From Deltaproteobacteria bacterium (GTDB lineage: Bacteria; Desulfobacterota; Dissulfuribacteria; Dissulfuribacterales; UBA5754), in contig JAINCN010000021.1 of the NCBI GenBank assembly GCA_036574075.1, positions 64,652 to 128,651 on the forward strand: a stretch of DNA of 64,000 bases. Reading direction: 5' to 3'. This document shows positions 121 through 60,352 of the stretch, in pieces. Made by a program: the position numbers and the translations under genes. Under the pieces are notes generated by a model that was not told where the DNA came from, made no database searches, and worked only from the letters and a program-made list of their open reading frames with translations. The stretch's first letter is position 1, and the number at the start of each line of letters is the position of its first letter.

Positions 121-1244
121 GGCCTGCTCCACTCCTGGATGACCGCTACGAGTTCGGGCAGGAGCCCAGAGCGGGCCTCCACGGCATCCATGACGCTGCG
201 GACGAGGAAAGGAGAAAGGCAGGTATCGGGCCGCTGGACCCAGATCCTCCCCCCTATACGCTCGACTTCCCGGGCCCCGGAGACCCCCTCTTGCAAATCC
301 CCTGAAAGATAGATGGCCAACGTCCCTTCGCTGAAGTGTTCGCTTGCGGAAAAGAGAAGGAGATCCAGGGGGCCTTCGCGATCAGAGAGATTCGTGCGTC
401 TGGTCACCCGCAGGGTCAGTCTGTCCCCAATTTGCTCAAAGGAGGAAATTTCGTCAGCAGATACGAAATAGGCACATCCTCGCTGGATCACGTCCCGGTC
501 ACGGACTCTCCTGAGGGGAAAGGGGGTATATGTCTGGAGATATTCGATAAAAGAATCGAGATACTGGCTAGACATACCAGCTACGACGATGATTGGCTCG
601 CGGGGCGGTACGGTAAAGGCCGGGAAAAGGCCCAGAAGCGAGGCGTATCCGCCAGTGGATGTCCCAATGACGGACACCCCGGCGGGATATCCCGTTTTCC
701 CTGCTGCTTCGAAAGACGGCGACCTAACGGCCGACCTTCCGAGTCTAAGGTAACGTGCAGCCCCCATGCTCACACCTGCAGCCCTCTTCACCTTCATTCT
801 CAGGACAGTCTTCTGCGCTTCCAGGTCCTCGCCTGATTCCTGGGACGGCTTCTGGAAAAAATCAACCGCGCCATAACGCAGGGCGTCAAATGTGATCCGT
901 GCGCCTTCCGAGGTAAAGGCGCTCACCATGAGGGCAGGCAACGGAGAACGTATCATGATGTGCTTGAGGAGGGTGATGCCGCTCATGCCAGGCATATTTA
1001 CATCAAGCGTACACACATCGACGTCACACCGGGCAAGTCTATCCATGGCCGATTGGCCGCTCATGGCCGTTCCGACCACCTGGATCTCGTCGTCATCCGA
1101 AAAGATCCTCTCAAGTACCTTGCACATCAAGGGTGAGTCATCCACGATGAAGACCCGTGTCCTTTTCCCTTTCTCCGGCCGAACAGTCGCGTCTGCAGCG
1201 CACTCCATGCAAGTCCTCCTCATATGCCTTATGAGATATGGCAA
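117..1244 (-). CDS. CheB-like response regulator (REC plus methylesterase-like domain; triad His apparently absent)
   Basis: 375-aa ORF. N-terminal receiver: VFIVDDSPLMCKVLERIF...CTLDVNMPGMSG...KP. C-terminal domain has a GTSTGG nucleophile-type motif, as in CheB GASTGG. AGM occupies the position where CheB has QHM. Confidence 0.8.
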   Translation of the reverse strand: MPYLIRHMRRTCMECAADATVRPEKGKRTRVFIVDDSPLMCKVLERIFSDDDEIQVVGTAMSGQSAMDRLARCDVDVCTLDVNMPGMSGITLLKHIMIRSPLPALMVSAFTSEGARITFDALRYGAVDFFQKPSQESGEDLEAQKTVLRMKVKRAAGVSMGAARYLRLGRSAVRSPSFEAAGKTGYPAGVSVIGTSTGGYASLLGLFPAFTVPPREPIIVVAGMSSQYLDSFIEYLQTYTPFPLRRVRDRDVIQRGCAYFVSADEISSFEQIGDRLTLRVTRRTNLSDREGPLDLLLFSASEHFSEGTLAIYLSGDLQEGVSGAREVERIGGRIWVQRPDTCLSPFLVRSVMDAVEARSGLLPELVAVIQEWSRP

Positions 1245-6254: not shown

Positions 6255-8570
6255 ATGAATCCTGAATCCATTAAAGCCCTTTTGTACGAGGCGGATCTTT
6301 ACGCCAGCCAAGGCCTCATCTCCGAGGCCCGTCAACTCTATGAAGAACTCCTCGCAAAGGCCGTAAACTATCCACCTCCCCTTGCCACGACCATCAAACA
6401 GAGGCTGGAGGCCCTCACAGGCACACGGACGCAGGCCGTTTCTGCCAACGGCCGCAATCGTCCCGCCCACGATGAAACGGATCGCCATCTCCAGAATGCC
6501 ATCGGCCTCATGGAAGCCGGCTTCCACCGAGAGGCCGTGAGCGAACTCAAGCTCATCCTCGACAAGGGTTATCCCAATGGGGAAATCCATCTCATGATCG
6601 CCGAGGCATATCTCGCCTCCAATCTTCCTTTCGATGCGGTGGATCACTTAGGAGAGGCACTGAAGGACACAAAACTCTCCCCAGAAAAACGCATGGAATG
6701 CCTCTACCGTGCCGCCATCATCCATGAGCAGCTCGGTATGATACCCCAGGCCATAGAAAAATTGAGGCAGATCGTGAGGATCGACCCCGGCTACAGAAAT
6801 TGCCGGGAGCGGCTGGACGGACTGACGCAAAGCGCCCAGAAATTCGGCCAGTACTATCCCCTGATCGCCAAAAATCTCCTGCAGGAAAGCCAGCTCGAGG
6901 AGGCGCGAAGCGCCGCTCGGGCAGGGGGAAAAACCATCGAATCCATCCTTATGACGAGATTTTCTATCGAAAAGGAGGAAATCGGCCGGGCGCTCAGCGA
7001 ATATTACCGCGTACCTTTTATCGAGTTTAACGAGCTCGAGGTGGGAACGGCGCCCGCCTGCATCAAGGGGGTCAAGGAACACTTCTTCCGGGCCAACACC
7101 TGTGTCCCTATCAAGGAAGAACGGGATGTCCTGCTCGTGGCACTCGACAACCCGAACGACCTCGTCAAGATCGACAACATAAAGCGCGTCCTCAAGGCCT
7201 CCCAGTTCGAATTCGCTGTGGCCCTAAAGGAAGACATCGACAAGTTCATCGACTTTTATTTCGGAAAGCTCAGCCTGGGTGGGAAGCAAGGAAACGTCTT
7301 CGATCAGCTGGAGATTTCCGAAGGGGAGGAGGTGGAGACGGATGATGAGGCATCCGACGCATCTGAAGCCGACAGCGTGGTTGTCCAGATGGCGAACACT
7401 ATCATCGAGGACGCCTTTGCAAAAAACGCCTCAGATATCCACATCGAGTCCCTAACCGGGAGGCGGGGGGCTGGAATCCGTCTGAGGATAGACGGCGACT
7501 GCATCCATTACCAGAACGTCCCCTATGAATACAAGCATGCCCTCATCTCCCGCATCAAGATCATGTCATCCCTTGACATCGCGGAAAAGAGGCTCCCTCA
7601 GGACGGAAAGATCAAATTCAAGACGCGACAGGGAAAGACCATCGAACTCCGGGTGGCGACCCTTCCCACCATAGAAGGCAACGAGGACGTGGTCCTTCGT
7701 ATCCTATCGGCATCTGAGGCTATGCCCCTCGACAAGATCGGCCTCATGCCGGATAACCTGGCGGCACTAAAGGATATCCTTGCCATGCCGTACGGCCTCA
7801 TCCTCGTAGTCGGCCCCACGGGTTCTGGAAAGACCACCACACTTCATGCCGCCCTCGGCCACATCAACCGCCCTGAAAAGAAGATCTGGACCGCAGAGGA
7901 TCCCGTGGAAATCGTCCAGGAAGGGCTCCGCCAGGTCCAGGTGAAGCCGGCTATAGGGCTAACATTCGCCCGGGTCCTTAGGGCATTTCTCAGGGCCGAC
8001 CCCGACGTCATCATGGTGGGTGAGACCCGGGATGAAGAAACGGCTACTACCGTTATCGAGGCCTCTCTCACCGGACACCTGGTCTTTTCCACACTCCACA
8101 CGAACTCAGCACCCGAGACGGTCACCCGGCTCCTCGGGATGGGCATGGACCCCTTCAACTTCTCGGACGCACTCCTCGGGATCCTTGCCCAGCGACTTGT
8201 AAAACGCCTCTGCACCAAGTGCAAGGAACCCTACACACCGGACAAGGACGAGATCCAACGACTCATAACGGAATACGGCTCGCACCCATCGAGGCCCCTC
8301 GATCCATCCCGATTCGCATCGGCGACTCTCTACCGGGCGAAGGGCTGCCCATTCTGTAACAACACAGGCTACAAGGGGCGCCTTGCCATCCACGAACTCC
8401 TCATTTCGAACGACGAGTTGAAGAGGCTCATTCAGGAAAAGAGACCGGTCTACGAGATCGCGGATGCCGCCCTGAGGGCGGGCATGCTCACCTTGAAGCA
8501 GGACGGCATCCTGAAGATCCTTTCCGGCGACACCGATATCAAACAGGTCCGCTCGGCATGCATCAAGTAG
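6255..8570 (+). CDS. GspE/PilB-family type IV pilus / T2SS assembly ATPase with N-terminal TPR extension
   Basis: 771-aa ORF. About 200 aa of N-terminal TPR-like repeats (LYASQGLISEARQLYEELL, MEAGFHREAVSELKLIL, GMIPQAIEKLRQIVRIDP). Then a GspE_N-like region, Walker A GPTGSGKTTTL, Asp/His boxes, and a tetracysteine motif CTKCKEPY...CPFCNNTGYKGR. Confidence 0.9.
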   Translation: MNPESIKALLYEADLYASQGLISEARQLYEELLAKAVNYPPPLATTIKQRLEALTGTRTQAVSANGRNRPAHDETDRHLQNAIGLMEAGFHREAVSELKLILDKGYPNGEIHLMIAEAYLASNLPFDAVDHLGEALKDTKLSPEKRMECLYRAAIIHEQLGMIPQAIEKLRQIVRIDPGYRNCRERLDGLTQSAQKFGQYYPLIAKNLLQESQLEEARSAARAGGKTIESILMTRFSIEKEEIGRALSEYYRVPFIEFNELEVGTAPACIKGVKEHFFRANTCVPIKEERDVLLVALDNPNDLVKIDNIKRVLKASQFEFAVALKEDIDKFIDFYFGKLSLGGKQGNVFDQLEISEGEEVETDDEASDASEADSVVVQMANTIIEDAFAKNASDIHIESLTGRRGAGIRLRIDGDCIHYQNVPYEYKHALISRIKIMSSLDIAEKRLPQDGKIKFKTRQGKTIELRVATLPTIEGNEDVVLRILSASEAMPLDKIGLMPDNLAALKDILAMPYGLILVVGPTGSGKTTTLHAALGHINRPEKKIWTAEDPVEIVQEGLRQVQVKPAIGLTFARVLRAFLRADPDVIMVGETRDEETATTVIEASLTGHLVFSTLHTNSAPETVTRLLGMGMDPFNFSDALLGILAQRLVKRLCTKCKEPYTPDKDEIQRLITEYGSHPSRPLDPSRFASATLYRAKGCPFCNNTGYKGRLAIHELLISNDELKRLIQEKRPVYEIADAALRAGMLTLKQDGILKILSGDTDIKQVRSACIK

Positions 8571-11461: not shown

Positions 11462-13121
11462 GGCCCATGACCTGTATCTGGAAAATGATCACCAGCTCGA
11501 CACGCTGGGAAGATTCCACATTGTGCCTGAAAGCAGGACCGATCACGGGAAGGGAGCCCAGGACCGGCACACCTACCCTGTTTTCCTTCTTTTTGTCCTG
11601 GATGAGGCCTCCGAGCATGAGTATCTCACCCGGCCTGGCCCGTACTACTGTAGATGCCTCTCTCAGGTTGACCCGAGGGAAGGTATAGCGATTTCCTCCG
11701 GTGAATTCGCGCTCCTCGAGGGAGATGAGGTCGCTCTTTATGGGCACGATATGGAGGTTCACGGTCCCGTCTGCCTCTATGATGGGGGTGATCCCAAGGA
11801 GCACGCCATCGAAGATGGAGCTTATCTCCACGTTTGTATCGGTGGTGGTAAGGTTGTCCCCGGATGTGGTCTCCTGCTCAAGGCTCCTTAGATACGAGAC
11901 CGACTGGCCCACGCTTATGACTGCTGACTGACCGTTCATGGCCTTCAGCCTGGGGTTTGAGAGGGTCTTGAGTGTCCCGTATTCCTCAAGGGCCTTGAAC
12001 ATGAGGCCGACGTCATAATAGCGCTGGGAGAGGTTCAGGCCGTACAGGAAGCCCGACTCCGTGATGTTGCTCGTCATGGTGAAGAGGGCCCCGGTATCCT
12101 TGAGCGCGTCCTTGCTGATGGTGAGTTCAAGCCTCCTCCAGTCGATGCCAAGTTCGTGTCCCTTGGAGAGCTCCACCTCAATGATCTTGGCCTCGATGAG
12201 GACCTGCCTTCTGTATTTTTCCCTCAGCGCATCGAGGTATGTGGCGATCTCCTCAAGGATCCGCGGCCGGGCCCTCACGAGAAGGGTGCCGGTCTGGCGG
12301 TTCAGGAAAAAGGTCCCTTCCTCCCCAAGCCTGGCCTTCACGGCGTTTTCTATCCCTGTGTATATATCGGTGACCGCGTCGGTCGTCTGTCCGGAAAGCT
12401 CGAAGTCTCCAGTGAGCGGGGTGAGGACGTTTTCGCTCCCTTCGCCGCCGCCCCCTCCACCACCGCCGCTGCTCCTGCCACCGCCTCCCCCGAGGACATC
12501 ACCGCCCACGGTGAACCGTGACTGAGGGACCGTGCCCAGGAATTCCAGGTGAAAGAGCCTCTGCGAGGTCCCGTGTATGTAAATGGTGCCCTCAGAATAG
12601 CTCCAGGAGATGTCCATGGCCTTTGTGACAGAGTCCAGGACCTCGCGCACAGGCCGTTCCTGGTAAACGGCAGTGAGGGTAGTCTTGTCACCGAGCATCT
12701 CGTCCACCTCCGGCCCGATCATGAGGTTTGCGCCTGCAGCATGCGCAAGGGCGTGGAGGATGTTCTTGTAGTTTTCATCGACGAAGGTTATAGAGACGAA
12801 CTTCGCGTCGAGGGGGGTTATGGTCTTGAATCGCGGCTGAGCAGAAGAGAGGTTTTTCTTGTGTTCAGGCCTGGTATCGGCAGGGAAAGGGGCATTGAAC
12901 CCCGATTGCGCTCCCAGGTCTTCAGGCATGGGACGCTCGCCCGTGCCGCCCTGCTGCCTGGCGCTGTCAGGGTGAGGCCCCAACCCGGCATTCATAGGTG
13001 CGCAGGCAGAAAACAGTGCCACAGAAAGGGCAAGCGCAATAAAGGGCAGTCCGCTTGTAAAGGTCTTTAAGGCAGACAGTTGCCTGGGCCGTCCGACTAT
13101 GACGTTTCGATGATGTCTCAT
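11445..13121 (-). CDS. secretin (MshL/PilQ/GspD family outer-membrane channel)
   Basis: 558-aa ORF. Secretin core QVLIEAKIIEVELS...NPRLKAMNGQSAVISVGQ...GEILMLGGLIQDKKKENRVGVPVLGSLPVIGPAFR...ELVIIFQIQV. Contains a Gly-rich insert GGGGGRSSGGGGGGGGEGSE. Confidence 0.9.
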   Translation of the reverse strand: MRHHRNVIVGRPRQLSALKTFTSGLPFIALALSVALFSACAPMNAGLGPHPDSARQQGGTGERPMPEDLGAQSGFNAPFPADTRPEHKKNLSSAQPRFKTITPLDAKFVSITFVDENYKNILHALAHAAGANLMIGPEVDEMLGDKTTLTAVYQERPVREVLDSVTKAMDISWSYSEGTIYIHGTSQRLFHLEFLGTVPQSRFTVGGDVLGGGGGRSSGGGGGGGGEGSENVLTPLTGDFELSGQTTDAVTDIYTGIENAVKARLGEEGTFFLNRQTGTLLVRARPRILEEIATYLDALREKYRRQVLIEAKIIEVELSKGHELGIDWRRLELTISKDALKDTGALFTMTSNITESGFLYGLNLSQRYYDVGLMFKALEEYGTLKTLSNPRLKAMNGQSAVISVGQSVSYLRSLEQETTSGDNLTTTDTNVEISSIFDGVLLGITPIIEADGTVNLHIVPIKSDLISLEEREFTGGNRYTFPRVNLREASTVVRARPGEILMLGGLIQDKKKENRVGVPVLGSLPVIGPAFRHNVESSQRVELVIIFQIQVMGHEQAV

Positions 13122-13582
13122 GGGATCCTCTCTCCCGATCTTATGAAGATCGACTGTTCCCCAGTGTCCACGGTCACCCCGTTTCCAGTGATGGATTTTA
13201 TCCTTAGCCCGGCGATCTCCTGGCCCTCATGCAAGATGTTTCCCTCGATGATGCAGAAACGGTCCGATCCGGTCACGGCCACGAGGCCAAGACTCAGGTC
13301 ATGCGCGACCCCTTCAGGTTCGGGTGGGGCGACAGGGATCGGCCTTTGATCCAGAAAGCCGAAGGGGTCGAGGGCGCCGATCCCTTCGATCTCCGTCTTT
13401 TCGGGAGACGCGGGCGCAAGCGCGGCAGGAAGTTGGGGCATGGCCTGGAATCCACGCGGGTGAGAACGGTAGGCCTGGGCGTTGAAGAGCATGACGAGAA
13501 GCGCGGTTGCCGCAGCAATGAATCCCGCCATAGGCAGGCAGACCGCAATCCATCTGACCGCCGGGTTCATGGAGCGAGACAC
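13118..13582 (-). CDS. pilus assembly protein, PilP/MshK/GspC-like (weak)
   Basis: 154-aa ORF with an N-terminal TM segment (WIAVCLPMAGFIAAATALLVMLF) and a C-terminal beta-rich segment RFCIIEGNILHEGQEIAGLRIKSITGNGVTVD. Call rests on position upstream of the secretin. 4-nt overlaps on both sides. Confidence 0.45.
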   Translation of the reverse strand: MSRSMNPAVRWIAVCLPMAGFIAAATALLVMLFNAQAYRSHPRGFQAMPQLPAALAPASPEKTEIEGIGALDPFGFLDQRPIPVAPPEPEGVAHDLSLGLVAVTGSDRFCIIEGNILHEGQEIAGLRIKSITGNGVTVDTGEQSIFIRSGERIP

Positions 13583-14037
13583 AGGAGATACCCCCGTATG
13601 CGGTATTCGAGGTGTCTGTCATCGTTCGTTTCGCCGGCCATGGCAGTTTTGATCCCGGCCTTTGCAGGTTCTTTTCTCGATGCGGAGAAGGAGACGGGGA
13701 CGAATACGCGGTCAGGGGCGCGCAAGGCGGAAAGACGGAGGACAAGCTCTGTAAAGGGCACATCCTGAAGGGTCATCTCCGTCTCCTGCCAAACTATAGC
13801 CGGGTTAGAGGTGAGATCCGGAAACGCGCCGCTGGTCCGTTCATCTCTGTTGGCCACATGGCGTTCGATTTCAGAGATGAGCTGTTCCTCCTTCAGGACG
13901 GCATCGAGGCCTGAGGCGAGTTCCTGTCTTTCCTTCCATGCAGCGACAAAAAACCAGATGGCGACGCAAAGGATCGACACCATTGCGGTCTGAAAAACAA
14001 TGGTTCTTGTCGGAGGGATGGGAGGGCCGTGGTTCAC
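13567..14037 (-). CDS. pilus assembly protein, PilO/MshJ-like (weak)
   Basis: 156-aa ORF with one TM segment (IVFQTAMVSILCVAIWFFVAAW) followed by a coiled-coil-like region. Operon position only. Confidence 0.45.
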   Translation of the reverse strand: MNHGPPIPPTRTIVFQTAMVSILCVAIWFFVAAWKERQELASGLDAVLKEEQLISEIERHVANRDERTSGAFPDLTSNPAIVWQETEMTLQDVPFTELVLRLSALRAPDRVFVPVSFSASRKEPAKAGIKTAMAGETNDDRHLEYRIRGYLLCLAP

Positions 14038-15503
14038 TGGTTCATCCTCATAGCGCCATTGCCGCGCGGAGAAATCGTGCAGGAGAGCACGCCCTCGGAC
14101 GTCTCTTCGGTGTAGCGTCTTTGGACGCGTTCGATGTCAAAGGCTGTCTGGAGGTTATGGATCGCGGCGTCCATCCGCTCGTTCGCCTCGCTAAAGGACG
14201 CAGAGGTGACGAGTTCGATTGCGATTTCCACGGGTTGGGCCAAGAGGGTGGCCGGGTCGCTGGAAACGAGATCCTGACCGGCGCTGTTCGCCATCCTAAG
14301 AGCCGGGGACGCGGCGGCCTTTGTCTCCCCGGATCCCTGGAGACCTTGGACAGCCCGGTTCAGGTCCATTTTTTTGATCTTCACCCCGTCAGGGAGCCTG
14401 TTTGCGAGGGTGACAAGGATCTCGTCCAGCCCGTGCTCGGCCCTGGCCCTGTTCCAGATGGCTGCAAGACGTTCGCGGGCCTCCCGTTCCGGTTGCGGCG
14501 GGAGTGTCTCCTCGATGAGCCGTCTTTTTGCCTCAACTTCCCGGGTACGATTGGCCAGATCGGCCTCAAGGGAAGAGTTCGTCCGCGCAAGGACAAGGGT
14601 GCCCGCAAGCAAAAGGGCGATTGCAGGAAGCGCGGCAAGGCTCGCCCATTTTGATACCTTCCCGATCGCGTAGGCCATCTTCCAGTCTTTAGGCACGAGA
14701 TCGTAGGCCGGGTCGGCGAACGCCACACCAAAGAGGTCAGGATGATCGTCCACCAGAGAAGGGTCCTGGACGTCCAGGATGGAATCCCACGCCGGTTGCA
14801 GGATATTCCGGCCGCCGAGCATGGCTGGGCACGAGCGCCGTTGCGGGCCGGTGGCGATGAAATGGCTGATATCGAGATCGTACTGCCTACGGGCCGTCTG
14901 GCTGACCATGTCGAAGGTCTGGGCCAGCATCGACTCCCGGAGGGATCCGTCCGTGTCAAGGGGGACAATCTGGGCGTGGAGAAGGACCGCGCCTGAAACA
15001 ACCATGATTTCAAGGAGTTCTTTATGGAAGATGGCAACGAGGACAGGTTCCTGGGTGAGGCGTCCCACGAGCCCGGCGATCGAGGCATGGCTGGGGATAA
15101 GGCCCGTGAGCCTCCATTCGCGCGCGCCGTGGCCGAGTTCCAAAATGGGTGCTACATCGCTTTCAGGCAGGGTGAGGACGGAGAGAATCTGATTTCCTGA
15201 GGCAGTGGTGCCGAGGGCCTTTATGCGATGGGCCACAGCCTGGCCTTCCGGCCACAGACCGCTCTGGCGGATCCGCTCAAGGACGCGGAGATTGAGGATT
15301 TCTTGTTTCGTTTTCGGGAACACTTCCCTGAAGATATGGATCTTCCTTGACGGGATGGTAACGGTCACTTCACCTGCGTTTACAGGCGCAGGGCCATGGA
15401 TCTCCTCGATCTGTCCGAAAGACGGCCTGTTAGGCGGTCCAGTGACGCGGACCCTGAGCCACGTCCCTCTTTCCTTTCCGGGTTTTGCGTAAAAACGGCC
15501 CAT
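14034..15503 (-). CDS. fused PilM-like / PilN-like pilus assembly protein (MshI-like)
   Basis: Start moved to the ATG at 15503 (MGRFYAKPGKE...) because the upstream part of the 15641 ORF lies inside the repeat element. About 330 aa cytoplasmic domain, a TM segment (WASLAALPAIALLLAGTLVLA), then coiled-coil and periplasmic domains. Confidence 0.55.
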   Translation of the reverse strand: MGRFYAKPGKERGTWLRVRVTGPPNRPSFGQIEEIHGPAPVNAGEVTVTIPSRKIHIFREVFPKTKQEILNLRVLERIRQSGLWPEGQAVAHRIKALGTTASGNQILSVLTLPESDVAPILELGHGAREWRLTGLIPSHASIAGLVGRLTQEPVLVAIFHKELLEIMVVSGAVLLHAQIVPLDTDGSLRESMLAQTFDMVSQTARRQYDLDISHFIATGPQRRSCPAMLGGRNILQPAWDSILDVQDPSLVDDHPDLFGVAFADPAYDLVPKDWKMAYAIGKVSKWASLAALPAIALLLAGTLVLARTNSSLEADLANRTREVEAKRRLIEETLPPQPEREARERLAAIWNRARAEHGLDEILVTLANRLPDGVKIKKMDLNRAVQGLQGSGETKAAASPALRMANSAGQDLVSSDPATLLAQPVEIAIELVTSASFSEANERMDAAIHNLQTAFDIERVQRRYTEETSEGVLSCTISPRGNGAMRMNQ

Positions 15504-28603: not shown

Positions 28604-29650
28604 ATGGATTACATCACCCCTTCGAACGAAAAATGGACCCTTGCGCTGGTGCTGGCGCTTGCCATCCATGTCCTTGTGGCAGGGTTCGCCGCCTTCGGCG
28701 TGGACCGATGGAGACGCTACGAGCCGGTCATGGCCTCCTCCACTGTGAGGCTGGTGGATCCCAAAAGCCTCTCCCCTGTCCCCGGGCCATCACACCCGGC
28801 CCGTCCTCCCCAGACCAGGACCCCGGCGGCACAGAAAGAGCACCCACGTCCGTCTCCGCCTGCTGTGGAGGCAAAGGCACCCAAGTCGGAACCCATGGTC
28901 CAGATCCCGGAAAAGAAACCCGAGCCAAAGCCTGCGCCCAAACCCGAACCAAAGCCTGAGCCCAAACCCGAGCCAAAGCCTGCGCCCAAACCCGAACCAA
29001 AGCCTGAGCCCAAACCCGAACCCAGACCCGAGAAGAAACAGGTATCTGTCAAGACCGAACCTGAAAGGCCTCTGAAAAAGGAGGAGAAACCAAAGCCCCC
29101 GCCCGAAAAACCAGCTGAGGGGCCTTCTTCCCCCAAGAACGAACAGAAACTCCTTTCCGAACGCCTCAAGTCCATACAGGAAAATGTCGCAGAAAAACAG
29201 GCTGATGAGATGCTCAAGGAAAGGCTCAGCTCCATACAGGGAAAGGCGGATGAGGAGATGCTCAATGAGAGGCTCCTCGCCCTACGGGGAAAGGTCGGAG
29301 ACGTAGGTGAGGACGTACCCCCAGGCGGCGAGAAAGGCCCTGCGGGAAGCAGTGAATTCTGCAACATCTATCCCTGCACAGAACTCTACGACCGCATCCG
29401 CGAGGCATGGATCCTTCCTGAGCAGCTCCTTGACACAAAGAATCTCGTCTGCGTCGTGGTGATAGTCCTCGACCAGAACGGGACCGTCCTTAACGCGTCC
29501 TTTGAAAAAAGATCAGGAAATCCCGTCTTCGACCAGTCCGCCATCAAGGCCGTGCGCGAGGCCCGCAGGCTACCGCCGCTGCCCCGGGCCCTTGGCATGG
29601 GCCCAGTGGAGATCGGGATCAGATTCCGTCCCGGTGAGGTGGGAACATGA
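28604..29650 (+). CDS. tolA: TolA-like protein (TM anchor, KPEP-repeat linker, TonB_C/TolA C-terminal domain)
   Basis: Start at ATG 28604 (MDYITPSNEKWTLALVLALAIHVLVAGF). Long (K/A)PEP repeats, Lys/Glu-rich helix and a C-terminal ...VVIVLDQNGTVLNASFEKRSGNPVFDQSAIKAVREA... domain. Confidence 0.8.
   Translation: MDYITPSNEKWTLALVLALAIHVLVAGFAAFGVDRWRRYEPVMASSTVRLVDPKSLSPVPGPSHPARPPQTRTPAAQKEHPRPSPPAVEAKAPKSEPMVQIPEKKPEPKPAPKPEPKPEPKPEPKPAPKPEPKPEPKPEPRPEKKQVSVKTEPERPLKKEEKPKPPPEKPAEGPSSPKNEQKLLSERLKSIQENVAEKQADEMLKERLSSIQGKADEEMLNERLLALRGKVGDVGEDVPPGGEKGPAGSSEFCNIYPCTELYDRIREAWILPEQLLDTKNLVCVVVIVLDQNGTVLNASFEKRSGNPVFDQSAIKAVREARRLPPLPRALGMGPVEIGIRFRPGEVGT
28919..29014 (+). repeat. perfect 2 x 48-bp tandem repeat (12-bp sub-period) encoding the PEPKPAPKPEPKPEPK linker of TolA
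   Basis: 28919-28966 is identical to 28967-29014 (CCCGAGCCAAAGCCTGCGCCCAAACCCGAACCAAAGCCTGAGCCCAAA). Confidence 0.9.
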
Positions 29651-53053: not shown

Positions 53054-53132
53054 GATCTCGATGAAAAACCCTTAGGAATTCGGGGCACGATTTTTAAAAA
53101 AATAACACAAAAGACAAAACCCGGCACATTCC

Positions 53133-53172
53133 CCTCCCACAAATACCCTGGCCGTAGGCTCACGGATTCAGG
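53133..53172 (-). mobile_element. truncated copy (solo end) of the MITE-like repeat
   Basis: CTCCCACAAATACCCTGGCCGTAGGCTCACGGATTCAGG matches one arm plus the terminal inverted repeat of copies 1 and 2. The rest of the element is absent. Confidence 0.6.
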
Positions 53173-53234
53173 ACATTGATAGAAAGGAAGCCAGGTTTTC
53201 GGAACTTGAATAAACTGCTATAGATAGGAACGGT

Positions 53235-53276
53235 CACGGTACCTGAGGAGGAAACCACGGTACCTGAGGAGGAAAC
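53235..53276 (+). repeat. 2 x 21-bp perfect tandem duplication containing the Shine-Dalgarno of divIVA
   Basis: CACGGTACCTGAGGAGGAAAC occurs at 53235-53255 and again at 53256-53276, immediately before the ATG at 53278. Confidence 0.9.
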
Positions 53277-53277
53277 C

Positions 53278-53895
53278 ATGGATCTGACTCCAAACGAGAT
53301 CCTCGAACATGAATTCGAGATCAGATTTCGGGGATACGATCGGGACGAAGTCCGCGCATATCTCGAGGAGATCGCCTCCCAGCTCACGGCCCTGCTCAAG
53401 GAGCGAAACGCGCTCAAGGGGCACTTGGCCACGCTCAGGGCCCAGGTGGACGAGCTCAAAAAACGGGATGAAGAGGTACGTATAGCCCTGACCACGGCCC
53501 ATTCCGTTTCAGAGGAGCTCAAACGCCAGTCCGAAAAGGAGGCCGAACTCATCGTGGAAAGGGCAAGGCTCGATGCAGAGCGCATTGTAGCCGACGCGCA
53601 CCGGGAGGCCGTTGTCCTTGAAGACCGAATCCGCGCCCTTAGAAGGCTAAAGAGGGAGACCATACACCGGATCCGGTCCCATGTGGAGGGATATCTTCGG
53701 ATCCTCGACGAGGAGGCACTCCCCGGGGAAGAAATCGACTCCCTCCTCCATGTCACCGCAACTGAGGCCCGTTCCCTCCAGGACTCGCCTCCTGTCCTCG
53801 AAGGTCCAGAAAAGACCCAAACACCTATGCATGGGCTTCCCGAGTCCTGGCAGGAGCGCCCTGACGACGAGAAAGACACCCCTGTCACGTCGTAA
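53278..53895 (+). CDS. DivIVA domain-containing protein
   Basis: 205-aa ORF. MDLTPNEILEHEFEIRFRGYDRDEVRAYLEEIA... is the canonical DivIVA N-terminus, followed by coiled coil. Confidence 0.9.
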   Translation: MDLTPNEILEHEFEIRFRGYDRDEVRAYLEEIASQLTALLKERNALKGHLATLRAQVDELKKRDEEVRIALTTAHSVSEELKRQSEKEAELIVERARLDAERIVADAHREAVVLEDRIRALRRLKRETIHRIRSHVEGYLRILDEEALPGEEIDSLLHVTATEARSLQDSPPVLEGPEKTQTPMHGLPESWQERPDDEKDTPVTS

Positions 53896-53949
53896 GGAGC
53901 CGGTAGATCTCAGGGACTTTCTGTGAGAGCCGGGAGACATCGTCCACGA
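53868..53949 (+). repeat. 82-bp direct repeat, copy 1 (upstream of kup)
   Basis: 81/82 identical to 55960-56041. It includes the last 8 codons and the stop of the divIVA-like gene. Confidence 0.9.
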
Positions 53950-53983
53950 GGATGTCTTCCACCCAAAGAAGGACTTCAAATTT

Positions 53984-55951
53984 ATGCACTTGTCCCCATC
54001 AGACGACATGCGCCCGTTAGCGCATGTTCCTGCCCAAACCGCTCCCCCGGAAGCCATCGGTCCCGACCTCCATAGCAACCCGTTACGAAAAACGCTCATC
54101 CTGTCCATGGGGGCGTTGGGCGTGGTATTCGGCGACATCGGCACGAGCCCCCTGTACACCGTGAGGGAATGCTTCCACGGTTCCCACGCGGTGGCCCTCA
54201 CCCCAGTCAACATCCTCGGCGTCATGTCCTTGATCTTCTGGTCACTCATGATTGTGGTCACCGTCAAATATGTGATCTTCATCTTGAGGGCGGACAACGA
54301 CGGTGAAGGGGGTATCTTCGCCCTTACCTCCCTGTTTTTAGGCAAAGGCGGCAAGGAGGTCTCGCAAGAGATAGTGAAGAAGCTCGTCACCCTGGCGATC
54401 TTCGGAGCCGCCCTTCTTTATGGAGACGGCCTCATCACGCCGGTGATATCCGTCCTCTCTGCGGTGGAAGGCCTCAATGTAGCCACCCGGGCAGCCGAAC
54501 CTTTCGTCCTCCCGATTGCATGCGGCATCCTGCTCGGCTTGTTCCTGTTCCAGAGCCAGGGGACAGAGCGCATCGGCAAGGTCTTCGGCCCCATCATGCT
54601 TTTCTGGTTTTGCTCCCTCGCCATCCTCGGGCTTTCGGAGGTGGTGAAAACGCCCAAGATTCTGGCAGCCCTGGACCCACGCTATGGAGTCGCTTTCTTT
54701 GCCGAAAACCGCCTCCACGGCTTGGTGGTCCTCGGCTCGGTGGTGCTTTGCATTACCGGTGGCGAGGCGCTTTATGCGGATCTAGGGCATTTCGGCCGGA
54801 GTGCAATACGTCTTTCCTGGACCATATTGGTATTCCCGGCCCTTTTGCTCAATTATTTCGGTCAAACCGCGCTCCTCCTGGAAGTTCCGGAGGCGGCCGC
54901 CAACCCCTTTTATGGCCTGGTCCCTAAGGTCCTTCTCTATCCCATGGTCGCCATGGCCACCATGGCCACGGTCATAGCCTCCCAAGCCATGATCACCGGG
55001 GTGTACTCCATCACCCAGCAGGCCATCCAGCTCGGCTATCTCCCTAGGCTACAGATCAGGCATACCTCGGTCGATACAAAGGGACAGATCTTCATGCCGT
55101 GGGTGAATACCGTCATGATGCTCGGCTGCCTTGCCCTCGCCCTCTCCTTCAAGGAGTCCAGCCGGCTTGCCTCGGCCTATGGCATCGCGGTCACCGCCAC
55201 CATGGCCATCACCAGTCTCATCTTTTTTTTCGTCACACGCCACAATTGGAAATGGCCAGCCTGGAAGGCGCTTTCGCTCTGCGTCATCCTGCTTTTCGTC
55301 GATCTTTCATATCTCGGCGCCAATCTTCTTAAGTTTTTCCATGGCGGCTGGTTTGCCGTGGCTGTGGCCGCGATCCTGACGGTGATCATGGTCACCTGGC
55401 GGGATGGCCGGGCCATCTTGGCAAGGCGCTTTGCGGATGAGCAAATCCCTGTGGAGATCATCCTGAATGACATCAAAACCTATAACCTCATCCGCACCCC
55501 AGGCACCGCCGTCTTTCTCGCGATTTCACCGGTCGGCACCCCCCGGGTCCTCCTGCACCTTCTCAAACACACCGAGTCCCTGCCCGAAAGAATCGTTCTT
55601 CTGTCCATCGTTTCTTCAGGCAACACCCCTTATGTAGCCCGGGAAAAACATCTTGCGATCACACACCTCGGGCAGGGTTTCCACCGCATCGTGGCCTATT
55701 ATGGTTTCATGCAAACCCCTTCTGTCCCGGAGATTCTGGAAATCGCAACGGCGCACGGCCTTGATCTGGATATTTACTCCACGTCCTTTTATCTCAGCCG
55801 TGAAACCCTCATCTGCAGCGGAAAGGGGGAAATGTCCTCCTGGCGCAAACAGATTTTTGCCTACCTCTCCCGCAACGCGTGGAACGTTTCCACCTACTTC
55901 GGCATACCCCCCAACCGGGTGGTGGAACTCGGCATCCAAGTGGAAATCTGA
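53984..55951 (+). CDS. kup: potassium uptake transporter Kup (KUP/HAK/KT family)
   Basis: 655-aa ORF with ALGVVFGDIGTSPLY, GGEALYADLGHFG, about 12 TM segments and a cytoplasmic C-terminal domain. Confidence 0.93.
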   Translation: MHLSPSDDMRPLAHVPAQTAPPEAIGPDLHSNPLRKTLILSMGALGVVFGDIGTSPLYTVRECFHGSHAVALTPVNILGVMSLIFWSLMIVVTVKYVIFILRADNDGEGGIFALTSLFLGKGGKEVSQEIVKKLVTLAIFGAALLYGDGLITPVISVLSAVEGLNVATRAAEPFVLPIACGILLGLFLFQSQGTERIGKVFGPIMLFWFCSLAILGLSEVVKTPKILAALDPRYGVAFFAENRLHGLVVLGSVVLCITGGEALYADLGHFGRSAIRLSWTILVFPALLLNYFGQTALLLEVPEAAANPFYGLVPKVLLYPMVAMATMATVIASQAMITGVYSITQQAIQLGYLPRLQIRHTSVDTKGQIFMPWVNTVMMLGCLALALSFKESSRLASAYGIAVTATMAITSLIFFFVTRHNWKWPAWKALSLCVILLFVDLSYLGANLLKFFHGGWFAVAVAAILTVIMVTWRDGRAILARRFADEQIPVEIILNDIKTYNLIRTPGTAVFLAISPVGTPRVLLHLLKHTESLPERIVLLSIVSSGNTPYVAREKHLAITHLGQGFHRIVAYYGFMQTPSVPEILEIATAHGLDLDIYSTSFYLSRETLICSGKGEMSSWRKQIFAYLSRNAWNVSTYFGIPPNRVVELGIQVEI

Positions 55952-55959
55952 GTAGGCGC

Positions 55960-56041
55960 CGAGAAAGACACCCCTGTCACGTCGTAAGGAGCCGGTAGAT
56001 CTCCGGGACTTTCTGTGAGAGCCGGGAGACATCGTCCACGA
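55960..56041 (+). repeat. 82-bp direct repeat, copy 2 (downstream of kup)
   Basis: 81/82 identical to 53868-53949. The single difference is CTCAGGG versus CTCCGGG. Confidence 0.9.
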
Positions 56042-56101
56042 TGACATAGTTCACCTCGCCTGACATGTGCGGGAGATATTCGTGGGCCTCCCTGTCGAGC
56101 G

Positions 56102-56587
56102 TTATACAGAAGGGTCGCACGCCCTGCTCTCTGGCCTCGAAGAGGGGGACGAGGGTCTCCTTTGGTTTAAGAAAATCTTTTTGATCGTTTGGCGGGTCCT
56201 CGCCTCCACGACGAGGCTGTCAAACTCGGCACGCGGGACCCATCGCGCATCGAGGGCGTCATCCCGGGCTTCAGGTTCCCCGCCCTGATATGACGCGCAG
56301 ACATAAACTACAAGATAGTGGTAGAGGATACCTCCGCTTCCGTCTTCATAGAGGGCATCAACGGCAGTAAGCACCCTCTCAGCCTGGACCGATACACCGG
56401 TCTCCTCCCTTACCTCGCGCTCCGCTGCCTCCAGGATGGTCTCCCCAAGTCGCATCTTCCCCCCTGGAAGGGACCAGGTCTTTAGGGCAGGCGGCGTCCC
56501 GCGCAGGACCATGAGGATCTCTCCGTCCCGTTCCACGAGCACGGCAACCGCCGGAACGGGCCGTTCAGGATAAGAATGGGGAGGCAT
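56102..56587 (-). CDS. NUDIX hydrolase
   Basis: 161-aa ORF with Nudix box GGKMRLGETILEAAEREVREETGV. Confidence 0.9.
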   Translation of the reverse strand: MPPHSYPERPVPAVAVLVERDGEILMVLRGTPPALKTWSLPGGKMRLGETILEAAEREVREETGVSVQAERVLTAVDALYEDGSGGILYHYLVVYVCASYQGGEPEARDDALDARWVPRAEFDSLVVEARTRQTIKKIFLNQRRPSSPSSRPESRACDPSV

Positions 56588-56667
56588 GCTGTTTTGAATC
56601 GGGATGAAAGGGGCCTGATGTGATCATGTCCTTGAAGACCCGGCGTATGCTGCTAAAGTTAGTCACC

Positions 56668-57615
56668 ATGACAGGAAAAAACAAATTGCGACTCGCCCTT
56701 CTTGCCGGAGGACGCTCGGCCGAACGAGAGGTATCACTTGCCGGCGCCCGGGTGGTCTCCGCGGCCCTCGACCCAGAACGCTACCATGTCCGCATGTACG
56801 ATCCTGCAACGGATCTCGAGCGCCTGGTCCACGACTCGTCACAGATTGACGCCGCCTTCATCCTCCTCCATGGCCGATTCGGGGAAGACGGGACGATCCA
56901 GGGCCTCCTCGACCTCTTAGACATCCCATACCAGGGCTCAGGTGTTTTGGGTAGCGCCCTCGCCATGGACAAACACCTCTCAAAGGTCATCTACCGCGAG
57001 GCAGGCATCCCCACACCTGCCTGGCTCCTGACAGAAAAGGACTCACCCCTTACCCATGAAGAGATAAGGCAAAGGCTCGGCCTTCCGGTCATGGTGAAGC
57101 CAGCGACACAGGGCTCGAGCGTCGGTATAACCAAGGTCTCGAGTCCCGAGGATGTCACCAGGGCCCTCGAGAAGGCCTTTTCCTTCGACCCCCGCGTGGT
57201 CGTCGAGGCCTTTGTCCCCGGCCGGGAGATCACTGGCGGAATCCTTGGGACAAGGCCCCCGACTCCCCTTCCCCTGGTAGAGATCACACCCGGAGAGGGA
57301 TTCACCTTTTTTGACTATGAGGCCAAATACCGACATGGGGCCAGCCGGGAAACCTGTCCCGCGGATCTTACCCCTGATATCACCCATAAGGCACAGGGAC
57401 TCGCCCTTGCCGCCCATAAGGCCCTCCAGCTCACCGGCTACAGCCGGACCGACATGATCCTCTCCCCGGCTGGAGGGCTCTTCGTTCTCGAGACAAACAC
57501 CATCCCAGGCATGACCGAGACGAGCCTCTTTCCGCTGGCAGCGCGGGCCGCGGGCATCACCTTCGGAGAACTCCTCGACCAGCTCATAGAAATGGCACTC
57601 GAGGGCAGGTCCTGA
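56668..57615 (+). CDS. ddl: D-alanine--D-alanine ligase
   Basis: Start chosen at ATG 56668 (MTGKNKLRLALLAGGRSAEREVSL); the ORF track starts at 56620. ATP-grasp motifs throughout and C-terminal LETNTIPGMTETSL. Confidence 0.9.
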   Translation: MTGKNKLRLALLAGGRSAEREVSLAGARVVSAALDPERYHVRMYDPATDLERLVHDSSQIDAAFILLHGRFGEDGTIQGLLDLLDIPYQGSGVLGSALAMDKHLSKVIYREAGIPTPAWLLTEKDSPLTHEEIRQRLGLPVMVKPATQGSSVGITKVSSPEDVTRALEKAFSFDPRVVVEAFVPGREITGGILGTRPPTPLPLVEITPGEGFTFFDYEAKYRHGASRETCPADLTPDITHKAQGLALAAHKALQLTGYSRTDMILSPAGGLFVLETNTIPGMTETSLFPLAARAAGITFGELLDQLIEMALEGRS

Positions 57616-59473: not shown

Positions 59474-60352
59474 ATGACACAACCCCCTCAAAAAAAAGGA
59501 AAGATCCAGTTTCAGTTGGGATGGGGAGGGCTTTTCGCCGTCTTCGCAACGAGCGTCTGCGTCCTTCTATGGGTCTTCATCCTCGGATTCTGGGCGGGCC
59601 AGAAGGTAATGCACCGGGGATCACCCCCGTCATTGCCGGAGACCCAGACATCCATCCCCGCTGAGCAGTCTGCACCCCCCATACCGCCACCGACACATGA
59701 AGCCCTGCCTCCGGTGGCTCCCACTTCCCCTCCGAAGGCTCCCACTTCCCCTCCGAAGGCTCTTACGTCCCCTCCGGAGGCTCCCACTTCCCCCCCGGAG
59801 GCGCCAGCCCCTGAACCGCCTCCAGCGCAAGATGCCGAGGTGTCACGGGAGACCACAAAAGAGACCCTCCCCCCGCCGGCACCTGCCTCACCCGTTGCAA
59901 GGCCCGCACCCGAGACTCCCAAGGAAATCCCGCCTCCACCAGTTGAGACGAAACGCCCTTCAGTAAGCCCCCCACCTCCTGCGCAGCCAACCCCGCAGTC
60001 CGCCTCAACTCCCGTTGAGACGAAACGCCCTTCGGTAAGCCCTCCACCTCCTGCGCAGCCAACCCCGCAGTCCGCCTCAACTCCCGCAAAGACAAAAGAT
60101 ACGGCTGTCGGGACCTATTTCACCCTACAGATCGCCTCCTTCAAGGATCGTGCCCAGGCGGAACATGCGGCCCAAAACTGGGCTGACAAGGGGTACCGGG
60201 CACGTGCAACAGGTGTGGACCTCGGGGCCAAAGGCACGTGGTACCGCGTCTATATCGGGCGATTCGAAACGCTTGACGAGGCCAAGGCCTTTGAGAGGAT
60301 CATCTCCAAAAAGGAAGGGATCAAGGCGTATATCGTCTCTGTAAAGGACTGA
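59474..60352 (+). CDS. SPOR domain-containing protein (septal peptidoglycan binding)
   Basis: 292-aa ORF with a TM anchor, a long Pro-rich repetitive linker and a C-terminal SPOR domain (YFTLQIASFKDRAQAEHAAQNWADKGYRARAT...WYRVYIGRFETLDEAKAF). Confidence 0.88.
   Translation: MTQPPQKKGKIQFQLGWGGLFAVFATSVCVLLWVFILGFWAGQKVMHRGSPPSLPETQTSIPAEQSAPPIPPPTHEALPPVAPTSPPKAPTSPPKALTSPPEAPTSPPEAPAPEPPPAQDAEVSRETTKETLPPPAPASPVARPAPETPKEIPPPPVETKRPSVSPPPPAQPTPQSASTPVETKRPSVSPPPPAQPTPQSASTPAKTKDTAVGTYFTLQIASFKDRAQAEHAAQNWADKGYRARATGVDLGAKGTWYRVYIGRFETLDEAKAFERIISKKEGIKAYIVSVKD
59717..59800 (+). repeat. 4 x 21-bp tandem repeat (APTSPPK/E heptads) in the SPOR protein linker
   Basis: Units lie at 59717-59737, 59738-59758, 59759-59779 and 59780-59800. 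The first two are identical (GCTCCCACTTCCCCTCCGAAG). Confidence 0.85.
59942..60085 (+). repeat. 2 x 72-bp tandem duplication (VETKRPSVSPPPPAQPTPQSASTP) in the SPOR protein linker
   Basis: 59942-60013 versus 60014-60085 differ at 2 of 72 positions, both synonymous (TCA/TCG, CCC/CCT). Confidence 0.9.

Follow-up and report, generated by a model that had tools for sequence, protein, structure and literature searches.

Analysing a stretch of 64,000 nt from a Deltaproteobacteria bacterium (contig JAINCN010000021.1 of assembly GCA_036574075.1, positions 64,652 to 128,651; in the following "the window"), we found that the potassium transporter gene kup is enclosed by two near-identical direct repeats, R1 and R2. 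Most probably R1 and R2 stem from a gene junction that became duplicated in an old, one-off insertion of kup, and are not the borders of an active mobile cassette. The repeat is the junction at which a divIVA-like gene and a convergent gene for a NorD/CbbO-type VWA protein overlap by 11 nt. Kup seems to have entered this junction in the common ancestor of the window genome and its sampled close relatives. The features concerned are the following (positions in the window):

53278..53895, plus strand: divIVA-like gene, 205 aa (Pfam DivIVA, E = 3.3e-31)
53868..53949, no strand: R1, left copy of the divIVA/VWA junction, with the functional divIVA end and then the last ~21 VWA codons as a dead copy
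53950..55959, plus strand: inserted segment of 2010 bp, comprising a leader of 34 nt that includes a ribosome-binding site, the kup open reading frame (ORF) and 8 nt (perhaps only 3) past its stop
53984..55951, plus strand: kup, K+ uptake transporter, 655 aa (Pfam K_trans, E = 3e-184; K_trans_C, E = 3.9e-41)
55960..56041, no strand: R2, right copy of the junction, with a dead divIVA end (17 nt plus the overlap) and then the native 3' end of the VWA gene
55977..56141, minus strand: VWA relic, what is left of a NorD/CbbO-type VWA gene (its final ~54 codons and stop)

R1 and R2 agree at 81 of 82 positions (blastn E = 2.5e-36), the single mismatch being an A at 53912 against a C at 56004, and their spacing from start to start is 2092 bp. 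Both repeat halves have exactly two occurrences in the window when up to three mismatches are tolerated, compared with none in 100 shuffles. The pair stretches weakly to 99 nt at 92% identity (53865-53963 / 55957-56055); the left part of this extension consists of 3-5 further duplicated bases, while the right part is an unrelated hairpin arm. The duplication of 82 bp may therefore reach up to 85-87 bp, since the bases to the left of both copies resemble each other as well as those of the outgroup contig L118 described below. A longer duplication reaching the kup stop codon, by way of a shared CTGA, was considered and rejected; Kup ends at the same residue in outgroup homologues. The 82-mer is made up of the last ~21 codons of the VWA gene, its stop codon (TGA, the complement of 55977-55979 in R2 and of 53885-53887 in R1) and 17 nt past this stop. 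The minus strand of both copies reads ...VDDVSRLSQKVPEIYRLLTT*, and on the plus strand R1 includes the end of divIVA, namely its final 8 codons and stop (EKDTPVTS*). The preliminary description of this locus had given the repeat pair around kup, its spacing, the divIVA end and the shared minus-strand peptide in the same way. It had also taken the copy after kup for a non-functional duplicate of a gene end, in agreement with the dead divIVA end held by R2.

The minus-strand frame past the neighbouring NUDIX gene is open for 80 codons. This 80-codon fragment alone gave no Pfam or NCBIfam match, and its family was identified only via homologues and the PDB. Its few database homologues are C-terminal pieces of VWA-domain proteins. 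One of these (P0001) matches NorD (PDB 9qhd chain G, residues 530-643 of 646) with E = 8.3e-21, and the intact orthologue of 794 aa from the relative L084 matches the same chain with E = 6.9e-51. A MoxR-type AAA+ partner (CbbQ/NorQ) is likewise found: immediately upstream of the VWA gene in the relatives L084-L087 and in L002 lies a 268-aa gene with AAA_5 and CbbQ_C domains, and this gene is deleted in the window. The window genome has no intact VWA frame, with ~54 of 794 codons left, and no VWA paralogue was found elsewhere in the window. When metagenomes were scanned with the intact VWA protein, the only matches were distant cbbQ-VWA operons (at most 65% identity), none of them beside divIVA, kup or NUDIX. 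The 29-codon ORF (56066-55977) that had been described as following the NUDIX gene does exist, but it is not a small gene. Both this ORF and the 47-aa hypothetical protein K6360_03355 of NCBI (P0002) are best read as the tail of the VWA relic. In an exact look-up neither the 47-aa ORF nor the DivIVA of the window was on record.

The window Kup belongs to a cluster of six members at at least 90% identity. Four other assemblies from two further lineages carry the same locus, namely L084 and L085 (ENA) together with L086 (JGI) as one lineage and L087 (NCBI GCA_973317295.1) as the other; their DNA is 93-96% identical to the window. In all four the gene order is divIVA, R1, kup, R2 and then, on the opposite strand, VWA (794 aa) and cbbQ (268 aa). 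NUDIX follows cbbQ in L084-L086, where the contig extends that far, and TonB is located upstream of divIVA in L084 and L085. Both repeat copies are present in each of L084-L087 with left and right boundaries identical to those of the window, and the boundaries of R1 are also the same in the contig L083. This indicates that the duplication predates the divergence of these lineages. R2 is collinear with the 3' end of the intact VWA gene in L084, L086 and L087; since an intact VWA gene ends in R2 in the relatives, R2 is the native VWA end.

These findings bear on the age of the insertion. Taken literally, the preliminary description had kup recently put into the spacer between divIVA and NUDIX, as a young cassette that can currently be excised or amplified. 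Within the window the match of 81 in 82 positions, the NUDIX gene directly past R2 and the breaks of k = 31 assemblies exactly at the repeat all speak for this model. The relatives, however, share the insertion with intact VWA and cbbQ genes between R2 and NUDIX, their repeats are more diverged, and the identical boundaries speak against independent insertions. Furthermore R2 is the native VWA end, gene conversion (see below) explains the near-identity of the repeats, and the composition of kup is like that of its neighbours. We consider a recent insertion very improbable indeed. On the preliminary description, relatives should have divIVA directly followed by NUDIX with a single 82-mer; instead kup, VWA and cbbQ lie between the two in the close relatives, and in L118 divIVA overlaps VWA. 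The same description had named a duplicated arrangement shared by relatives, with diverged repeats, as an observation that would speak against it. This is in part what we found, with the same boundaries and a match of 71 in 82 positions in L084, so the event was not recent. Nor does base composition set kup apart: the G+C content of kup is 0.574, or 0.729 at third codon positions, and its synonymous codon usage correlates with that of the neighbouring genes at r = 0.88, all of which is unremarkable.

The repeat structure could in principle be an assembly artefact, that is, a collapsed or duplicated repeat or a chimeric join. Several short-read assemblies do break at the repeat. The Logan contig L001 (2070 nt), from SRR15502205, which is probably the sample of origin or a sister sample, corresponds exactly to window 53920-55989. 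It is made up of the unique 2010 bp and 30 nt of repeat at either end, which is what a k = 31 graph branching at the repeat should yield; other short contigs with this kup (2085, 2102 and 2661 nt) tell the same story. Such contigs fit reads in which kup has a repeat at either end; by themselves they do not order the pieces, which the long contigs of the relatives do. Both junctions are crossed, in the same order, by assemblies from other samples made with k = 141 and k = 127. Altogether four other assemblies, from several samples and two further lineages, span both junctions in this order, and R1 and R2 differ at one base. The probability of an artefact, which the preliminary description had asked to have excluded, is in our view practically nil.

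Sites without kup were found in two outgroups. A search with the window DivIVA led to a homologue of 80% identity (P0132) on the 1381-nt Logan contig L118 from sample ERR14790928. Here divIVA (172-795, plus strand) overlaps the 3' end of a VWA gene (785-1141, minus strand; this is P0001) by 11 nt, and kup is missing. The left part of L118 aligns to the window divIVA up to the end of R1 and the right part to the VWA gene of L084 from R2 on, with ~90 nt shared by the two alignments, equal to a single repeat copy. The tail of divIVA reads EKDDNVTS* in L118 and EKDTPVTS* in the window; this homology indicates that the divIVA tail carried by the repeat is native. On a second contig, L119 from sample SRR10095342, whose DivIVA is 65% identical, divIVA overlaps the VWA gene by 8 nt, with cbbQ beyond and again no kup. 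The inserted segment, whose limits are set by the repeat boundaries, is missing from both contigs. The most parsimonious reading of these alignments is one insertion of the 2010-bp segment (53950-55959) into the divIVA/VWA overlap, duplicating 82 bp. The earlier proposal that kup was inserted with duplication of its target is supported by these empty sites, whereas the target itself has to be corrected from the divIVA-NUDIX spacer to the overlapping 3' ends of divIVA and VWA. More distant searches added little: a DivIVA homologue at 61% identity lies in a yggT-divIVA-dus context and is too distant to inform.

L118 and L119 would look the same if kup and both repeats predated the splits of these lineages and kup had been lost there by homologous recombination between R1 and R2. 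Such recombination would yield exactly the observed structure with one copy, and the two copies demonstrably interact. This history needs one gain and one or two losses against a single gain. R1 decays fast where it is not converted (11 of 82 positions in L084), but the two copies inferred for the ancestor of the kup clade are almost identical, which argues that the duplication is not much older than the clade. In addition the Kup homologues of other lineages (73-76% identity) sit elsewhere, in neighbourhoods unrelated to this locus. We therefore regard a loss of kup in the outgroups as improbable, and prefer a single insertion in the ancestor of the kup-bearing lineages.

The number of differences between R1 and R2 varies among the genomes: one of 82 positions in the window, three in L087 and 11 in L084. 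The R1 copy of L084 is decayed, with a divIVA stop 6 codons earlier (199 aa); R2, constrained as VWA coding sequence, remains conserved. At repeat positions 51 and 55 (53918 and 53922 in R1, 56010 and 56014 in R2) the two window copies have a T, as opposed to a C in R1 and R2 of L084, in R1 and R2 of L087, in R1 of L083 and in the single copy of the outgroup L118. In R2 the changes to T turn the conserved ...SRKVPEIY... into ...SQKVPEIY.... Derived bases that only the two window copies have in common argue for gene conversion, which requires two mutations and one conversion instead of four parallel mutations. The near-identity of the window repeats thus points to concerted evolution and not to youth, and the A at 53912 is best explained as a later, R1-specific change. 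As in concerted evolution between short dispersed direct repeats, the copies within a genome share derived substitutions that are missing from the orthologous copies; here the tract is very short (82 bp), two sites are involved and conversion is seen in only one of three sampled lineages. The repeats had been described as substrates for recombination. The two shared derived bases indicate that the copies do recombine, but we found no evidence of current excision or amplification; a rare, RecA-mediated deletion or amplification of kup is possible.

NUDIX adjoins R2 in the window because this genome later lost ~3 kb, comprising cbbQ and most of the VWA gene. Two further features are concerned:

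56142..56162, minus strand: deletion junction, with 12 unassignable nt (56142-56153) and a remnant of the cbbQ start (56154-56162)
56102..56587, minus strand: NUDIX hydrolase ORF (Pfam NUDIX, E = 3.6e-20)

Compared with L084, the window lacks positions 12158-15180 (~3.0 kb). This span takes in cbbQ from its fourth codon on and ~740 codons from the beginning of the VWA gene, so that the deletion took 93% of VWA. The remnant of the cbbQ start reads AAGGAGACC (56154-56162), with the ATG changed to AAG, and is followed by the unassignable nt and then by VWA sequence. The NUDIX protein of L084 ends ...TIQGMF*. In the window this native stop (TAA within 56167-56173) is out of frame through a 1-nt difference (TTCTTAA in the window, TTCTAA in L084), and the NUDIX ORF consequently continues for 26 codons into the VWA relic.

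Beyond NUDIX the synteny with L084 breaks (window 56588 onward, L084 15658 onward). In the window ddl and argS come next, in L084 unrelated genes (82 aa, 359 aa, FlgM and others). The break marks a second rearrangement, within 0.5 kb of the deletion. In the region 56620-56670, the ddl ORF as listed has a GTG start only 32 nt from the divergent NUDIX start; its true start is probably an internal Met ~16 codons downstream (MTGKNKLRLALL...). A ddl-anchored scan of species-representative genomes gave best matches of only 55-61% identity, and tblastn recovered synteny only for NUDIX-ddl in L003.

The full-length Kup, with its K_trans and K_trans_C domains, is a member of the Kup/HAK/KT family, and kup is the only ORF of the insert with a Pfam match. 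No transposase or integrase is encoded in the insert, no mobility gene was found within ~10 kb in L084 and no recombinase within ~10 kb in L084-L087. The ends of the insert (GGATGTCT... and ...GTAGGCGC) are not terminal inverted repeats, and the composition of kup gives no mobility signal. We found no match of the repeat in viral contigs and none of the kup cassette in plasmids (complete genomes of the clade were outside this search). Among the contexts of the Kup homologues there was no donor locus for kup and no likeness to the 34-nt leader.

With a duplication of at least 82 bp, no inverted termini and no transposase, the locus does not have the form of an insertion sequence (IS) or transposon with target-site duplication; the preliminary description, too, had judged 82 bp too long for a transposase. 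A direct duplication of the target on both sides is common to the two situations and is consistent with fill-in of a staggered break, but here it measures 82-87 bp, whereas bacterial IS elements and transposons typically give 2-14 bp. An integron cassette does not fit either; the 8 nt between the kup stop and R2 are too short for an attC site and there is no integrase nearby. The repeat also differs from dispersed repeats of the repetitive extragenic palindromic (REP) type or of the type of miniature inverted-repeat transposable elements (MITEs), having two copies in the window and one at the orthologous L118 site, and representing the native end of two genes. A role as terminator found no support, as a scan of 53100-56700 detected no terminator in or beside the repeats and no promoter-like site; a search of the whole window against Rfam gave no match.

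The structurally nearest known arrangement is the pair of attachment sites, attL and attR, flanking an element that has integrated into a gene's 3' end, including decayed cis-mobilizable elements (CIMEs), which keep attL and attR after loss of the integration genes (PMC5704250). As in genomic islands, integrative and conjugative or integrative and mobilizable elements (ICEs, IMEs) and CIMEs, a block of foreign or relocated DNA lies between direct repeats of tens of bp, the target gene's end is kept whole and the repeats are still substrates for recombination. The repeats may be attL and attR of an integrase-mediated islet that carried a copy of the target 3' end and decayed to a CIME-like remnant of one gene. 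Direct repeats that hold and restore the 3' ends of the targets (divIVA in R1, VWA in R2) are a hallmark of integrative elements. In contrast to such elements, no integrase, relaxase or relic of one was found, within ~10 kb in any relative for the integrase, and no related element using the same att sequence; neither the repeat nor kup matched viral contigs or plasmids. The insert amounts to one promoterless gene and hardly any DNA around it (34 nt, the ORF and 3-8 nt), so that other DNA of the element would need to have been trimmed exactly to the att sites. Moreover the duplicated site restores two overlapping convergent genes and not one. We consider this origin quite improbable.

We propose the following history for an insertion into the overlap. 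In the ancestral state divIVA (plus strand) and the NorD/CbbO-type VWA gene (minus strand, followed by cbbQ and NUDIX) would have been convergent, overlapping by 11 nt. In the common ancestor a compact segment of 2.0 kb, consisting of the 34-nt leader, kup and 3-8 nt past its stop, would have been inserted, and ~82-87 bp across the overlap duplicated. The divIVA end would have been retained in R1 and the VWA end in R2, the remainder of each copy being dead; a plain insertion into the overlap would have cut short one of the two genes. Later, and in the window genome only, the ~3-kb deletion, the loss of the NUDIX stop with reading into the relic and the gene conversion between R1 and R2 would have followed. 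Going by the anatomy of the locus alone, the insertion was most likely illegitimate and independent of a recombinase. In the model that we prefer, a linear fragment would have been joined to the ends of a staggered break once their long overhangs were filled in.

The duplication could also have arisen in two steps, with a short tandem duplication of the repeat uncoupling the gene ends first and kup landing between the copies later. Short tandem duplications do occur in the window genome, as shown by a perfect one of 21 nt upstream of divIVA that is specific to this genome. Kup, however, lies exactly at the junction between two complete copies, whereas an independent hit could fall anywhere in ~70 nt of dead sequence, and no relative shows the two copies without kup. 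That both copies are complete and the insert lies exactly between them speaks for a single duplicating event, and we see little probability in a tandem duplication with a second hit.

At the left junction of the insert we noticed a hairpin:

53932..53960, plus strand: hairpin across the boundary of R1 and insert, 10-bp stem with the arms GGGAGACAUC..GAUGUCUUCC

The insert begins with 11 nt (GGATGTCTTCC) that are reverse-complementary to repeat sequence lying 9 nt upstream (GGGAGACATC), and the two together form the hairpin. Its energy is -18.3 kcal/mol in the window, -17.0 in L087 and -9.8 in L084, so that it is retained in three lineages though L084 has five substitutions in one arm; it is missing at R2 and at the empty site. 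Of 3000 shuffled sequences 14 fold as well (p ~0.005), and against genomic 19-mers the p-value is ~0.02. The hairpin could be a patch of snap-back templated repair, an RNA element upstream of kup that is under selection, or due to chance. A short inverted copy of the repeat at the left junction would fit snap-back templated synthesis.

At end-joining junctions, long duplications of the target and templated (snap-back) filler are known mainly from eukaryotes. The locus resembles such junctions in the long target duplication, the compact insert without mobility functions and the inverted copy of ~10 nt at one junction. A fuller version of our proposal would see in it a fossil of recombinase-independent gene gain: a linear, promoterless kup captured at a staggered double-strand break in the 11-nt overlap, with a fill-in of 82-87 bp and a snap-back copy of ~10 nt at one junction, where the duplication made the insertion tolerable and the repeats stayed recombinationally active. 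We put this version forward tentatively, as possible but rather unlikely. Should the end-joining reading be true, a route of gene acquisition in bacteria would be documented here; we know of no description of an end-joining-type long duplication as a route of gene gain in bacteria.

Several points weigh against the proposed history. Its polarity hangs on two short outgroup contigs, and as recombination between R1 and R2 would likewise leave one repeat copy, a loss of kup is possible there. The case for gene conversion is built on two sites and on a comparison with five other copies, sampled from three sources (L084-type, L087/L083 and L118). No donor locus of kup was found; the gene may have come by relocation within the genome or by transfer. 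The mechanism is read from the anatomy of the locus, and the hairpin is only modestly unusual (p ~0.005-0.02) and may be functional or a matter of chance.

Near-perfect repeats around one gene mimic a young mobile cassette. In the case presented here they would belong to an old scar that was re-homogenised by conversion, and the apparent divIVA-NUDIX target would have arisen only later, by deletion. For genome assembly the locus illustrates that repeats of 82 bp break short-k assemblies exactly around kup. It may further serve as a worked example of how a gene can enter the overlap of two convergent genes and leave both unharmed, through duplication of the overlap. In addition a small datable series of events (insertion, conversion, deletion, loss of a stop codon) would be traceable in an uncultured lineage of Thermodesulfobacteriota.

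Some further observations were made at the locus and its relatives. The cbbQ-VWA pair looks damaged in other lineages as well (L118 785-1381, L119 1920-3495, L002 2696-5073): in L118 the VWA gene has stop codons or frame breaks upstream of its last 118 codons, in L119 it is without ~350 internal codons, and in L002 it is split into 678 and 103 aa. This damage may reflect repeated decay of the operon or errors in short-read contigs. In L087 an insertion of 159 nt (6426-6584), present neither in the window nor in L084, separates the kup stop from R2. An 8-nt direct repeat (AAATCTGA) bounds this insertion, which contains internal inverted repeats (GATCCCGCTCAAAAAGCCCG ... CGGGTTTTTTCAGCGGGATC) and looks like a MITE; the contig L083 appears to end within the same element.

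The 21-nt tandem duplication in front of divIVA occupies 53235-53276 (two perfect copies of CACGGTACCTGAGGAGGAAAC) and ends 1 nt ahead of the start codon, doubling the GAGGAGG ribosome-binding site of the gene. The unit is single-copy in L084, L087 and L118, so the duplication is specific to the window genome. A repeat scan of the whole window revealed three coding-type tandem repeats elsewhere. The first (28916-29047) has a period of 12 nt (AAACCCGAGCCA-like, encoding Lys-Pro-Glu-Pro); the other two consist of four units with a period of 21 nt (59708-59812) and of two 72-nt units at 96% identity (59939-60082).

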